From the NCBI GenBank assembly GCA_965276975.1, contig CBDIBR010000009.1, positions 53,938 through 117,937 of the forward strand: a DNA stretch of 64,000 nt, in the 5' to 3' direction. The notes beneath the pieces are model-generated. The model had not been told where the DNA came from. It saw nothing but the letters and a program-made list of their open reading frames with translations, and did not search any database. How positions within the stretch are numbered: position 1 is the first letter of the stretch; every line of letters begins with the position of its first letter. The stretch is from Rhodopila sp. Lineage in GTDB: Bacteria; Pseudomonadota; Alphaproteobacteria; Acetobacterales; Acetobacteraceae. The position numbers and the translations under genes were made by a program. Positions 1,945 through 47,962 of this stretch are shown piece after piece.

Positions 1945-3084
1945 TCATTGCGCTGGCCAGTCGAGCTCCGGCAACCGCAGCAGAGGCACCTGGCGCATCG
2001 ATAATGTGCGATATTGAAGTGTCAGCGGTACATCTACGGTGGTCGCCCGCTCATTGTCATCGGCTCCGGCGATCAGCGAAAGCACGGCTTTGGCGACGGT
2101 CGCCGCCGATCTCGACAGCACGCCATCCTCTGCCAGCTTGTCCAGGGCTTTATCATAACCGACGAATCGCCCGTTGCCGCTTCCCATTGGCTGAAGCTGA
2201 TCATCCAAGGCCAGGGTCGCCGACCCGGTCAGGCCCAGCGGCCCCCAACCCATCGTCAGGCGGGCGATGTCCAACGCGCCACCGCGGTCGCGCCACCGCC
2301 GCGCCCACCCTGTGATACCGCTCTGGGTCGGAAAAGGTCCCCGCACCTTGCCATCCACGGCCAGTGAAGAAATATTGCGACCAAGCGGCCATCGGATCGT
2401 GCCAGGAAGAGCAATCGCCTCGGAACTGACGCGGAAGACCGCGGCGGCCGGGGCTTGATCAGCGGCAGAAGCCTCCGCCTGGGCATTCAGCAGGCCGATC
2501 GACACGTGCCACGCTCCGGTCGCGGCCTCGATCCGCAAGCCCCTGGCCTGCAGCACCACCGGCCGCGGTCCGGCCTGGTCAGAGCGGGATGGCGTAAGGT
2601 TGACGCGATCATGTTCTGGTCCCGGTTGCCTGACAGGGCGATTGACCTCCGAGGCTGGCGCACCCTTGGACGATCGCGCGCCAAGCGGCACCGACATCGC
2701 GGTCTGATCGCCGGTCACGATGATGTCGGGTATCCCGCCGGCGCGCACATGGGTTGGTCCGCTGATGGACAAGCGCAGATGGGTCGGTTCGAACAGGGAG
2801 ACGGAAAGCATCACATCGGCAGCGGCCACATCCAGGGTGCCTGGAATTGTCGGCCCGGCGTGACGTAACGTCAGGTCAGGGACGGTCAGCGTGGCCGCCC
2901 GGGGCCATCCGCCGATCGACAGCGGACCCGAACCGACGTCCCAACCCTCGGCGATCCGCGCCGTCATCCAGCTTCGGTAACCAGCTTTCAGCTGGTCGGC
3001 CGCGACCTTCCAGTACGCGACCTGCGCGGCGGCGACAAGAACAACCAGTATGGCAACGATGGACCAGGCGACGCGGCGGGTCAT
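1945..3084 (-). CDS. DUF2125 domain protein with an in-frame repeat insertion
   Basis: N-terminal TM/signal, GGWP motif and WGPLGLTGSATLALDDQLQPMG. Lies in the usual position downstream of ftsEX-plsC. Confidence 0.8.
   Translation of the reverse strand: MTRRVAWSIVAILVVLVAAAQVAYWKVAADQLKAGYRSWMTARIAEGWDVGSGPLSIGGWPRAATLTVPDLTLRHAGPTIPGTLDVAAADVMLSVSLFEPTHLRLSISGPTHVRAGGIPDIIVTGDQTAMSVPLGARSSKGAPASEVNRPVRQPGPEHDRVNLTPSRSDQAGPRPVVLQARGLRIEAATGAWHVSIGLLNAQAEASAADQAPAAAVFRVSSEAIALPGTIRWPLGRNISSLAVDGKVRGPFPTQSGITGWARRWRDRGGALDIARLTMGWGPLGLTGSATLALDDQLQPMGSGNGRFVGYDKALDKLAEDGVLSRSAATVAKAVLSLIAGADDNERATTVDVPLTLQYRTLSMRQVPLLRLPELDWPAQ
2581..2680. repeat. About 100-bp palindromic dispersed repeat (family A), copy inside the DUF2125 CDS
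   Basis: 70/100 ungapped identity to 17221-17320; shares GGTTGACGCGATCA, CCGGTTGC, GGGCGATTG and GACGATCGCGC. Confidence 0.85.
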
Positions 3085-16724: not shown

Positions 16725-17096
16725 ATGAGTGATCTATTCGCGCCCGATGGTGGCTGGCGGGTTCGTATTCTGGACCTGTCGGCGGACACCAAGGACAATG
16801 TCACCGAGGAAGTCCCCGGCTTCGACACGCTGATGCACGCCAACGCCTTCGCGCGCCGGTACGTGCGCGATTCGGTCGAGCGATGCCGGGTCCCGGGCAT
16901 GTCGTCCAAGGATGTGCTTGAAGCATGGTTCGCCTTTGGTGAAGACGCGGTGGTCGCCGATGCGGCCGAGGGTGGCTGGAAAAGTGCCACCGAACTGGGT
17001 GACTTCGTTGATGGTCTCGCAAGCCGGGAAGAGCGTGATTGGCGTTCGCTTGACCCGCGGCGAGAGGACCTCGACCTCGATGAGGACGATGCGTGA
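16725..17096 (+). CDS. Hypothetical acidic protein
   Basis: Coding-like 123-aa ORF whose stop overlaps the GTG start of the next gene. Confidence 0.7.
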   Translation: MSDLFAPDGGWRVRILDLSADTKDNVTEEVPGFDTLMHANAFARRYVRDSVERCRVPGMSSKDVLEAWFAFGEDAVVADAAEGGWKSATELGDFVDGLASREERDWRSLDPRREDLDLDEDDA

Positions 17097-18526
17097 TTCG
17101 CGTGCGGTTCGCGCCGGTGCTGGCGGGCAGCGTGTTCGTCAGCAGCGCTCGGATTGCCCTGGCCAACGACTTGTTTGCTCGGCGAAACAATGGCGAGATG
17201 CTGCTTCGACTGGATGACTTAGGCCGCGATCGCCTCGGGTTGACGCGATCACACCCTAAATCCGGTTGCTTGAGCGGGCGATTGGCGTCCGGGGTTGATC
17301 CAACGTCAGACGATCGCGCTGTAGACACCAGGCGAGCCGACCCGGTTCCTATCGAGCAGATCGTGCAGGATCTGCGCTGGTTGGGTATCGAGTGGCAAGC
17401 GTCCTTCCGCCAATCCGAGCGATTGGAGCTGTACCAAAACGCGATCGAGCGCCTGAAGCGAGACAAGCGCCTGTATCCCTGCTTTGAGTCGGAGGAGGAG
17501 CTGAAAGCCAAACAGGCGTTCCGCCGCAGGCACAACCAGCCGACGATCTATGACCGCGGTATGCTGTCGCTGACTGAAAAGCAGCGTCGGGATGCCGAAG
17601 CAGGCGGCAAATCGGCGCACTGGCGGTTCAAGTTGCCTGACCGATCGGTGGCATGGGACGATCTGGTTCTGGGACCACGAAGTGCGGCTCTGTCGGCTGT
17701 GTCCGACCCGGTTCTGGTGCGCGCTGACGGCCAACCCACGCCCCTGCTCGCCGGCGTGGTGGACGACGTCGAGTACGGCACCACCCATATCATCCGCGGC
17801 GACGACAGTGCCGGCAACACCGCTGTGCAGATCGCGTTGTTCGACGTCCTTGGCGGCGGGCAGGTTCGCTTCGGCCACCTGCCTGGCTTGCGCAGCGGCG
17901 GACCGGCGAGATCGGGCGGACGGCGCGCCGAGGACCCGGCGATACGGGGTCTACGCAAGGACGGCGTCGAGCCCGGAGCGATCGTTGCCTGCATGACGGG
18001 CCTGGCGGCTGGCAGGATGCTAGCATTGGACGACCTCGCGAAGCAGTTTGAGATCGCCAGCATCGCGGCGTGCCGCTTCGACATCACCCGCCTACTCGCC
18101 GTTAACCGGCGGCTGCTGAGCGAGCTTGATTTTCCGGCGGTGGCCGACCGCCTGCCGGAAGGAGCCACCGAGCGCTTCTGGCAGGCGATCAGGGGCCATG
18201 TTGAGCTGTTAAAGGATGCGCGTGATTGGTGGGATGTCGTGGCTGGGACGATCAGACATCCTGTGCTCGAAGGCCAGCGGGACCTGTTGCTGCGTGCCGA
18301 GGCACTGCTGCCACCTGAACCTTGGGATGATGCCGTATGGACCGGCTGGATCCGCGCTGTCGAGACTTCCACCGGACGAAGCGGCGACGCCGTTGTCGCG
18401 CCGCTTCGCCTCGCGCTGACCGGCGAGAGCAGCGGCCCGGATCTGGCGCGATTGCTGCCGCTCATCGGCCGCGAGCGGGCTTCGAAGCGGCTCATCGTTG
18501 CCGCCGCTGATACCAATCCGTGTTGA
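17093..18526 (+). CDS. Glutamate--tRNA ligase paralogue with degenerate HIGH/KMSKS motifs and an in-frame repeat insertion
   Basis: RVRFAP, DLRWLGIEW, LYPCFESEEEL, SDPVLVRADG, VVDD, HIIRG and PLRLALTG identify the GluRS fold. The HIGH position reads VFVSS and the KMSKS position reads RSGGR. Confidence 0.85.
   Translation: MIRVRFAPVLAGSVFVSSARIALANDLFARRNNGEMLLRLDDLGRDRLGLTRSHPKSGCLSGRLASGVDPTSDDRAVDTRRADPVPIEQIVQDLRWLGIEWQASFRQSERLELYQNAIERLKRDKRLYPCFESEEELKAKQAFRRRHNQPTIYDRGMLSLTEKQRRDAEAGGKSAHWRFKLPDRSVAWDDLVLGPRSAALSAVSDPVLVRADGQPTPLLAGVVDDVEYGTTHIIRGDDSAGNTAVQIALFDVLGGGQVRFGHLPGLRSGGPARSGGRRAEDPAIRGLRKDGVEPGAIVACMTGLAAGRMLALDDLAKQFEIASIAACRFDITRLLAVNRRLLSELDFPAVADRLPEGATERFWQAIRGHVELLKDARDWWDVVAGTIRHPVLEGQRDLLLRAEALLPPEPWDDAVWTGWIRAVETSTGRSGDAVVAPLRLALTGESSGPDLARLLPLIGRERASKRLIVAAADTNPC
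17221..17324. repeat. Family A palindromic repeat, copy inside the GluRS-like CDS
   Basis: Terminal inverted repeat CGCGATCG (17225-17232) / CGATCGCG (17311-17318); homologous to 2581-2680 and 47875-47959. Confidence 0.85.
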
Positions 18527-31895: not shown

Positions 31896-31998
31896 GCATC
31901 AGAGAAACGCGATCTGTTGCTGTTTGTCTGAAGTAGCCGATTTGCGCGGCGAAACGCGGCCGCTTCGCGTCTCGCGGTTCTCTACGATCGGGTACTAG
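31896..31998. repeat. Structured dispersed repeat (family B), copy 1
   Basis: Shares GCTGTT.GTCTGAAGT.GCCGA...CGGCGAAACGCGGCCGCTTCGCGTCTC...CTCT.CGATCGGG.ACT.G with 42370-42471. Confidence 0.85.
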
Positions 31999-42369: not shown

Positions 42370-42471
42370 CTAGTATTGGGCATCAGACGCCGCTGTTCGT
42401 CTGAAGTCGCCGACGCACACGGCGAAACGCGGCCGCTTCGCGTCTCCCGCTGCTCTGCGATCGGGGACTGG
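42370..42471. repeat. Structured dispersed repeat (family B), copy 2
   Basis: Homologous to 31896-31998, including the identical 27-mer CGGCGAAACGCGGCCGCTTCGCGTCTC. Confidence 0.85.
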
Positions 42472-47138: not shown

Positions 47139-47876
47139 ATGATCAGGCTGTCGATCGCCGTGCCGGCCGGATTGGCGCTTGCTATCGGGGGGCTTTCTAT
47201 TGGGGGCCTTGCCCTCGGGCCGCTTACCCTGGGGGTGGCGCAGGCGGAGAATGCGGGTCATGCCTTGCCGCCGCCGGCCGCGGATGCGACGCCGAGCGGT
47301 GGCGGTTCCGAGACGGCGGTTTTCTCCGGTGGCTGCTTTTGGGGCGTGCAGGGCGTGTTCCAGCATGTGAGGGGGGTCACGCGGGCGGTTTCGGGCTACG
47401 CGGGCGGTCACGTCGCCAACCCGGACTACCAGCAGGTCAGTTCAGGCGACACCGGCCATGCGGAGTCGGTTCGCGTGACGTTCGATCCGGCTCAGGTCAG
47501 CTACGGCACGCTGCTGCGGATCTTCTTCTCGGTGGCGCTTGATCCCACGCAGAAGGACCGGCAGGGTCCCGATTGGGGATCGCAATACCGTTCGGAATTG
47601 TTCGTGAACGGGCCGGAGCAGGAGCGGATCGCCAGGGCCTATGTCGCGCAGCTCGACGCAGCCCATGCGTTCGGCCGTCCGATCGTCACGCGGATCGATC
47701 CCGCCGGGCCGTTCTACCCGGCCGAGGCGTATCATCAGGACTACCTCGATCGGCACCCTGACGCGCCGTACATCGCGATCAACGATCTGCCGAAGGTTCA
47801 GGCCCTGCAGACGTTGTTTCCGGGACAGTGGCAGTCAACGCCGGTCACGGTCGGCAAGCTTGCCTCCGGCGATTGA
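47139..47876 (+). CDS. msrA: Peptide-methionine (S)-S-oxide reductase with N-terminal signal peptide
   Basis: GGCFWG, GHAESV and FYPAEAYHQDY. Confidence 0.95.
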   Translation: MIRLSIAVPAGLALAIGGLSIGGLALGPLTLGVAQAENAGHALPPPAADATPSGGGSETAVFSGGCFWGVQGVFQHVRGVTRAVSGYAGGHVANPDYQQVSSGDTGHAESVRVTFDPAQVSYGTLLRIFFSVALDPTQKDRQGPDWGSQYRSELFVNGPEQERIARAYVAQLDAAHAFGRPIVTRIDPAGPFYPAEAYHQDYLDRHPDAPYIAINDLPKVQALQTLFPGQWQSTPVTVGKLASGD

Positions 47877-47962
47877 GCGCGCTCGCTTCAGGGTGAAGCG
47901 GTCACGTCCTGTTCGAGAAGGCGATCGACGTCCGAAGTTGGTCCAACCTCGGACGATCGTCA
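47875..47962. repeat. Family A palindromic repeat, intergenic copy
   Basis: 47875-47910 matches 17222-17257 at 26/36 and 47915-47959 matches 17272-17316 at 36/45. Internal hairpins are CGCTTCA-GGG-TGAAGCG and GTCCGAAGTTG-GTC-CAACCTCGGAC. Confidence 0.85.

Follow-up and report, generated by a model that had tools for sequence, protein, structure and literature searches.

Host gene and repeat copies in the window

The window analysed here, a 64,000-nucleotide stretch of DNA from Rhodopila sp., lies on contig C9 of a 5.3-Mb genome with a GC content of 64%. It contains a gene for a DUF2125 protein that carries a copy of a dispersed repeat, together with two further copies of the same repeat. The features are as follows.

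1945-3084, minus strand: host gene encoding a DUF2125 protein of 379 residues (Pfam PF09898, E 2.6e-35; mean pLDDT of the model 84.6)
2580-2581, unstranded: left dinucleotide, CA in place of the TA that the consensus shows for the target-site duplication, from comparison of the sequence with the consensus
2580-2618, plus strand: hairpin 1, comprising the left terminal inverted repeat and the adjoining inverted copy (consensus positions 2-19 pair with 23-40)
2581-2682, minus strand: 34 inserted codons, GARSSKGAPASEVNRPVRQPGPEHDRVNLTPSRS, residues 135-168 of the DUF2125 protein, from the orthologue gap and the translation (placement ambiguous by 1-2 nt)
2582-2681, plus strand: 100-nt core of the repeat, consensus positions 4-103, GAGCG...CGCTC, aligned to the family consensus
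2646-2672, plus strand: hairpin 2, overlapping the right terminal inverted repeat on its inner side (consensus positions 68-79 pair with 83-94)
2682-2683, unstranded: right dinucleotide, again CA, forming the other half of the duplication, from comparison with the consensus and with empty sites that hold one dinucleotide
17221-17322, plus strand: second copy, in frame in the GluRS-like gene at 17093-18526 (plus strand), where the other of the two open frames is used, giving LGRDRLGLTRSHPKSGCLSGRLASGVDPTSDDRAV
47874-47959, plus strand: third, shorter copy, starting at the 3' end of a plus-strand gene (nhmmer 66 bits, E 6.1e-18)

The first-pass annotation had reported a repeat at 2581-2680 within the minus-strand DUF2125 gene, translated there without a stop and lying in the opposite orientation, relative to the gene, to another copy. 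The repeat is indeed present, its exact core differing from those coordinates by only 1-2 nt, and the peptide is part of the 379-residue open reading frame. This copy and the one at 17221-17322 are both on the plus strand and their host genes are on opposite strands, so the element is read from opposite strands in the DUF2125 and GluRS-like genes. The DUF2125 copy matches the family HMM with 70 bits (E 3.8e-19; nhmmer window 2580-2681), and its best BLAST matches in the genome reach 78.6% identity over 98 nt (E 1e-16). Positions 2585-2679 and 17225-17319, both in the plus-strand orientation, are 72% identical over 95 nt. The folding energy of the DUF2125 copy is -41.6 kcal/mol, compared with a family median of -42.7 kcal/mol.

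An AlphaFold2 model of the DUF2125 protein, built on the orthologue alignment, shows a long N-terminal helix followed by a repetitive β-rich body. Residues 135-168 are modelled as coil with a pLDDT of ~48-57 between strands 127-133 and 176-187, which places the insert in a predicted loop, as had been expected of a structure prediction at the outset. A search with Foldseek gave no significant match to the model in the PDB, the best hit being LptC with an E value of 0.08. This lipopolysaccharide-transport protein (Foldseek probability 0.97) is the sole structural lead for the DUF2125 model, and a weak one.

Orthologues and divergence of the insert

The window protein was aligned with 23 relatives to give an alignment of 24 sequences; a larger alignment of 36 sequences was also made. 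In 22 of the 23 relatives a clean gap of 34 residues falls exactly at GARSS...PSRS, so the indel proposed by the first-pass annotation is present. A frameshifted sequence, L049, aligns poorly at this position. Among the 24 sequences the insert is common only to the window protein and L001, which is 92% identical to it, which puts the insertion in an ancestor shared by their two genomes.

The insert is under relaxed constraint relative to its host gene. Between the window gene and L001 it is 82.4% identical at the DNA level and 70.6% identical at the amino-acid level, compared with 94.7% and 93.6%, respectively, for the remainder of the gene, and this faster divergence is significant (Fisher p 1.4e-4). 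Nei-Gojobori estimates for the same pair give an omega of 0.75 for the 34-codon insert and of 0.28 for the gene outside it, and the host gene thus remains under purifying selection. GC3 likewise differs, being 0.59 in the insert and 0.74 in the remainder of the gene. The frame of the insert has stayed open in both lineages, with no stop or frameshift across the 102 nt.

Five intergenic copies shared between the two sister genomes are 87-95% identical, and the copy at 17221-17322 in the GluRS-like gene, which is also shared (L088), is 85.7% identical. At 82.4%, the DUF2125 insert therefore drifts at least as fast as the non-coding copies. With 34 codons and two genomes as its basis, the comparison suggests that the added loop is neutral, and the DUF2125 protein that carries it is presumably made and working.

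The repeat family

A census of the whole genome by BLAST and three rounds of nhmmer yielded 268 hits, which represent 180 separate loci. Full-length copies number 80, and the modal length is 105 nt when the flanks are counted. The consensus, TTAGAGCGTGATCGCTTCAGGTTGAAGCGATCACGCTCTAATTCCCGTTGTTTGAGAGGGCGATTnACGTCCGAGGTTGGTTCAACCTCAGACGATCGCGCTCTA, is bounded by terminal inverted repeats of ~23 nt, GAGCGTGATCGCTTCAGGTTGAA and GAGCGCGATCGTCTGAGGTTGAA, which agree at 19 of 23 positions. The repeat contains no transposase gene: the core measures 100 nt, with no open frames beyond those of 34-35 codons. An inverted copy of the left end follows directly after the left end and forms a 19-bp hairpin with it, and a second hairpin of 12 bp overlaps the right end. 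The family occurs in 27 of the 36 genomes of the genus that were sampled and was found in none of the 24 other families of the class that were sampled. Full copies and right-half copies also form tandem or nested arrays in which neighbours abut or overlap by a few bases (C10:414410-414635, C10:4215317-4215520, C10:520150-520315 and C10:1785117-1785280).

Pair counting over 42 copies found 82% of the cells of a three-helix structure to be paired, compared with 30-41% when the partners were slid, and changes on both sides of a pair in 61 cells, compared with 31 in shuffles, none of 500 of which scored as high. In helix 1, 12 of the 18 pairs show changes on both sides (82% of cells paired); in hairpin 2, where the paired fraction is again 82%, pair 72-90 occurs as CG in 13 copies and as UA in 11. 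These changes are suggestive of selection on the hairpin, with the qualification that the cells count sequences rather than events and that subfamilies are evident. RNAalifold returned only a weak consensus structure for the 42 copies (-4.6 kcal/mol), and a search of the Rfam covariance models with the DUF2125 copy and six well-preserved copies gave no relevant match at E<=1.

Mobility and target site

Copies have moved since the window genome and its nearest sequenced relative diverged. The latter, the sister genome G001 (= G032), which holds L001, is 94-95% identical in flanking DNA and carries at least 150 copies of the repeat. Seventy of these copies were compared with the window genome: about 24 are shared at a length of 100-111 nt, and eight correspond to clean empty sites in the window genome (L064, L066, L069, L078, L121, L127, L130 and L132), the remainder being in rearranged regions or without a collinear flank. 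The ratio of empty to shared sites is four to six among the 30 best-preserved copies and four to ~18 among the next 40; that empty sites are relatively commoner among the best-preserved copies fits recent activity.

The empty sites contain one dinucleotide and the filled sites two, which flank the 100-nt core GAGCG...CGCTC, so that each insertion gives a net gain of 102 nt. The dinucleotide at the eight empty sites is TA in five cases, TG in two and CA in one, the TG and CA sites being L069, L078 and L132. The consensus has TA next to both GAGCG and CGCTC at its ends; in the DUF2125 copy both flanks read CA. TG and CA are each one transition away from TA, and the non-TA flanks may reflect either decay of TA, which would be quick in a GC-rich genome, or a target that is looser than that of classical IS630 elements.

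Candidate transposase

Outside the loci of the repeat, the terminal motif was also found in an insertion sequence that is present twice in the genome.

C10:3230274-3231344 and C4:107226-108296: 1071-nt IS630-family insertion sequence carrying the terminal motif at its ends

This element encodes orfA, with a weak HTH_Tnp_IS630 match, and orfB, which matches DDE_3 with an E value of 2.4e-28. Its end, TAGAGCACGCTAGCCTGAGGTTGA, agrees with the right end of the repeat at 20 of 24 positions, and a second IS630-family element that is 57% identical to it has the same first 20 bases. The genome contains 32 DDE_3 matches in all. No match to Y1_Tnp (PF01797) was found in the whole genome, where control genomes gave matches, and a REP/RAYT origin was rejected for want of a Y1 transposase. 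The IS630-like ends, the DDE_3 matches and the absence of a Y1/RAYT enzyme from the genome together led us to file the repeat as an IS630-type MITE.

Judged from sequence, the MITE probably depends for its movement on an IS630-family transposase acting in trans. The identity of the mobilizing enzyme is tentative, since the 1071-nt element is absent from several MITE-rich genomes: among the genus genomes searched, a near-identical copy occurs only in the window genome and its sister, and none was found in the MITE-rich members G004, G007, G035 and G028.

Pairs of partial MITE copies 0.6-3.5 kb apart were also considered as the possible ends of an autonomous partner and were rejected, as they proved to be MITE copies inside which IS110- or IS5-family elements had landed. 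The IS110-family element (1636 nt; DEDD_Tnp_IS110 and Transposase_20) is present in seven near-identical copies, one of which splits a MITE copy (C10:3844560-3846195, C10:4363390, C10:2399324, C10:2887575, C10:1913099, C10:3005007 and C8:24068). The idea that it targets the MITE was discarded because only one of the seven copies lies in one; their common feature is a CTAG/TAG junction, with ...CTAG on one side in most copies and TAG... on the other side in all. The IS5-family element, of ~0.9 kb (C10:145646-146540, ends GGGCGTGTCGTCAAATGA), lies at an internal CTAA of a MITE copy with TA duplicated. Three of the other IS110-family copies adjoin relatives of a second dispersed repeat, unrelated to the MITE, which occurs in the window at 31919-31996 and 42392-42469 (85% identity over 78 nt).

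Genomic distribution and other host genes

Genes were called with a simple codon-usage caller of our own (4038 genes, 79% coding), and the intragenic counts given here are therefore approximate. Six of the 180 MITE loci lie wholly within gene calls and 51 more overlap a gene end, whereas 3532 of 5000 random placements of 105 nt (~71%) fall within genes. At least 95% of the loci are intergenic and only ~2-3% are clearly inside genes. Convergent gaps contain 58 copies and divergent gaps of equal total length contain 18; across the 180 loci there is no consistent orientation relative to the neighbouring genes.

Four proteins clearly carry a copy internally or close to a terminus, namely the DUF2125 protein, PhnI, the GluRS-like protein and a PMT_2 glycosyltransferase. 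The PhnI copy is located as follows.

L058:1001-2143 (C10:1701373-1702515): gene for PhnI, a C-P lyase subunit, with an in-frame MITE at residues 146-180 (PF05861, E 1e-162)

The element is opposite to the gene in DUF2125 and PhnI, where orientation and phase are the same, and has the orientation of the gene in the GluRS-like protein and PMT_2. Each of the four occupies the one phase without stops that its orientation offers, and the encoded peptides are hydrophilic. With a looser scan, one more candidate was added close to an N-terminus, along with several copies that form the C-terminal tail of a protein. The GluRS-like gene encodes class I Glu/Gln tRNA-synthetase domains. Its product has PVLAGSVFVSSARIAL where the HIGH motif is expected, and the best catalytic-domain match begins only downstream of the insert, at residue 78. 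The protein could be a paralogue that has diverged or degenerated.

Open frames on both strands

A six-frame count of the consensus gives two open frames out of six, one on each strand, and to this extent the first-pass annotation, which had described the element as open on both strands, was correct. Its further proposal that the frames are selected for survival within genes, as in RPE- or CIR-type elements, is unsupported, since the frame content is at chance level and the family is overwhelmingly intergenic; the consensus also contains no GANTC, and the high intragenic frequency of RPEs is not seen. Dinucleotide-preserving shuffles of the consensus have 1.63 open frames on average, and random 106-mers of the genome have 3.26, more than the two of the consensus. 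A frame is open on both strands in 44% of the shuffles and in 87% of the random genomic 106-mers, and such a property in a short GC-rich repeat is therefore no evidence of selection. The stops in the four closed frames are the TAG created where TA meets G at the ends, the TGA within GTGATCG and an internal TTAG. Both open frames are largely intact among the 46 copies of exact length (in 37 and 38 copies, ~80%), because copies inherit the consensus. Survivorship by itself would confine intragenic copies to the one open phase of their orientation, as is observed for all four clear cases.

Origin of the DUF2125 insert

It is highly likely that the inserted stretch in DUF2125 is a copy of a non-autonomous MITE of the IS630/Tc1-mariner type, which inserted in frame by chance and has been kept because it is harmless. 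The MITE, with its 100-nt core and terminal inverted repeats of ~23 nt, inserts at a TA-like dinucleotide and duplicates it, adding 102 nt each time, and one copy landed in the DUF2125 gene of the common ancestor of the window genome and its sister. As 102 is a multiple of three, the reading frame was not shifted. The insertion also fell in the only stop-free phase of that orientation and at a turn between two predicted β-strands, a combination that left the gene open and added a hydrophilic, probably disordered loop of 34 residues. Since then the insert has stayed open while drifting quickly. Most insertions into genes would have been lost, the survivors being those with an open phase, a length divisible by three and a tolerant loop or terminus as their site. 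Survival in frame is made possible by this divisibility, a coincidence with a one-in-three chance.

Several other explanations were weighed. The element might be adapted to life within genes in the manner of RPEs, with its stop-free frames on both strands and its multiple-of-three length maintained by selection. One open frame per strand, each intact in ~80% of the 46 exact-length copies, a net insertion of 102 nt and four proteins with in-frame copies and hydrophilic peptides all agree with this, but two open frames out of six compare with 1.63 in shuffles and fall below the genomic background of 3.26, 44% of shuffles are open on both strands and a length divisible by three has a prior of one in three. 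At least 95% of the loci, moreover, are intergenic, where open frames are merely inherited from the consensus, and the omega of 0.75 in the insert also argues against adaptation of this kind, which we regard as improbable. We find it very unlikely, too, that the 34-residue loop has been co-opted for a function of DUF2125, for example as a new interaction surface. The absence of any stop or frameshift from the 102 nt in two lineages since their split, in a host gene under purifying selection (omega 0.28), could be taken as a sign of function, but the open frame needs no such explanation, because a stop or frameshift would destroy the 210 residues downstream. The loop itself is only 70.6% identical in amino acids, compared with 93.6% elsewhere, has an omega of 0.75 and is low-confidence coil in the AlphaFold2 model.

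The hairpins and the gene-end bias bear on what kind of repeat this is. Strong hairpins with both-side changes (61 cells compared with 31 in shuffles) and enrichment at the 3' ends of genes (58 convergent and 18 divergent) would suit a repeat of the REP/BIME kind that a RAYT (Y1) enzyme spreads, or a family of structured-RNA genes. Both are highly improbable in view of the lack of a Y1_Tnp match in the whole genome, the duplicated dinucleotide seen by comparison with empty sites, the match of the ends to an IS630-family insertion sequence and the lack of an Rfam match or of a consistent orientation relative to neighbouring genes. There is next to no chance that no insertion occurred, the 34 residues being ancestral to DUF2125 and lost elsewhere or resembling the repeat by accident: nothing beyond formal possibility speaks for this, and it conflicts with the E value of 3.8e-19 against the family model, the lack of the segment in 22 relatives across the genus and family and the GC3 of 0.59 in the insert compared with 0.74 in the rest of the gene. 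A bolder reading, which we consider unlikely, leaves the MITE origin in place: compensatory changes, seen in 12 of the 18 helix 1 pairs, and a threefold enrichment in convergent gaps hint that the MITE hairpins are selected as RNA or as single strands and that the family serves in Rhodopila as a module that stabilizes RNA 3' ends or terminates transcription. Were this so, the family would, through its 102-nt step and hydrophilic frames, incidentally supply a free-living alphaproteobacterium with new protein loops time and again, and would be comparable in this to the RPEs of Rickettsia.

Comparison with known elements

By anatomy, the closest relatives of the Rhodopila MITE appear to be IS630-linked MITEs such as RUP and the Correia elements. 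RUP, the 107-bp repeat unit of pneumococcus, is present in more than 100 copies, is mostly intergenic and uses a TA-type target. It is proposed to be mobilized by IS630-Spn1, and its terminal repeats resemble the ends of IS630-family elements of the same genome. The two elements share a length of ~100 nt, an intergenic location, IS630-like ends, a TA-like target and a copy number above 100. They differ in phylum, and similarity of sequence is not to be expected; the Rhodopila MITE also carries within it an inverted copy of the left end (the 19-bp hairpin) and includes several in-frame genic copies. RUP is listed as a MITE in a review (PMC10969869).

With the Correia elements the Rhodopila MITE has in common duplication of a TA or TA-like dinucleotide, terminal repeats, size, intergenic location and hairpin potential. 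These elements of Neisseria (NEMIS/CREE) are 100-155 nt in length, have terminal inverted repeats of ~26 nt, duplicate TA and are present in hundreds of copies, mostly between genes, with the potential to form RNA hairpins. They also carry an IHF site and promoter elements. We know of no partner transposase for them, whereas the Rhodopila MITE has a candidate IS630-family partner that shares 20 of 24 terminal bases. The Correia elements are covered in two reviews (PMC3184786 and PMC10969869).

RPEs are palindromic repeats of ~100-150 nt that are found in frame in unrelated proteins, where the peptide is compatible with the fold; 44 insertions in genes are given for R. conorii, and RPEs are regarded as the extreme case among documented in-frame fusions by intragenic MITEs (PMC10969869). 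The Rhodopila MITE resembles them as a palindromic repeat of ~100 nt in frame in unrelated proteins, with the insert described here in a predicted loop. It differs in having only ~2-3% of its loci in genes, and in its terminal repeats, target duplication and candidate transposase. Two further papers describe the enterobacterial ERIC/RU elements and QMITE2 of Coxiella as mainly intergenic and as occasionally contributing in-frame protein residues (PMC2759123, PMC5896051), the target duplication of QMITE2 being 7-11 nt. These are separate families with other target duplications, and no homology with the Rhodopila MITE is implied. CIRs are defined by their association with CcrM methylation sites (GANTC). 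The likeness to them lies in being an intergenic repeat of an alphaproteobacterium; direct reading of the 105-nt consensus reveals no GANTC, and the Rhodopila MITE is therefore not a CIR, a class named among other repeats in the same review (PMC10969869). Its intergenic bias is in line with a census of prokaryotic MITEs, ~90% of which are intergenic (PMC11602168).

A literature search for repeats or transposable elements of Rhodopila found no paper. The in-frame insertion in DUF2125 is a new example of a known phenomenon, and it provides a clean and datable case of a MITE adding a loop without breaking proteins in a free-living photosynthetic genus of the Acetobacteraceae. Annotation of the 34 residues concerned in DUF2125, PhnI, the GluRS-like protein and PMT_2 should carry a repeat-derived label. 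Comparison of filled and empty sites with the sister genome, the candidate transposase and the four proteins that host the element, in both orientations, could together show how often transposon insertions into genes survive and how fast an added peptide drifts.
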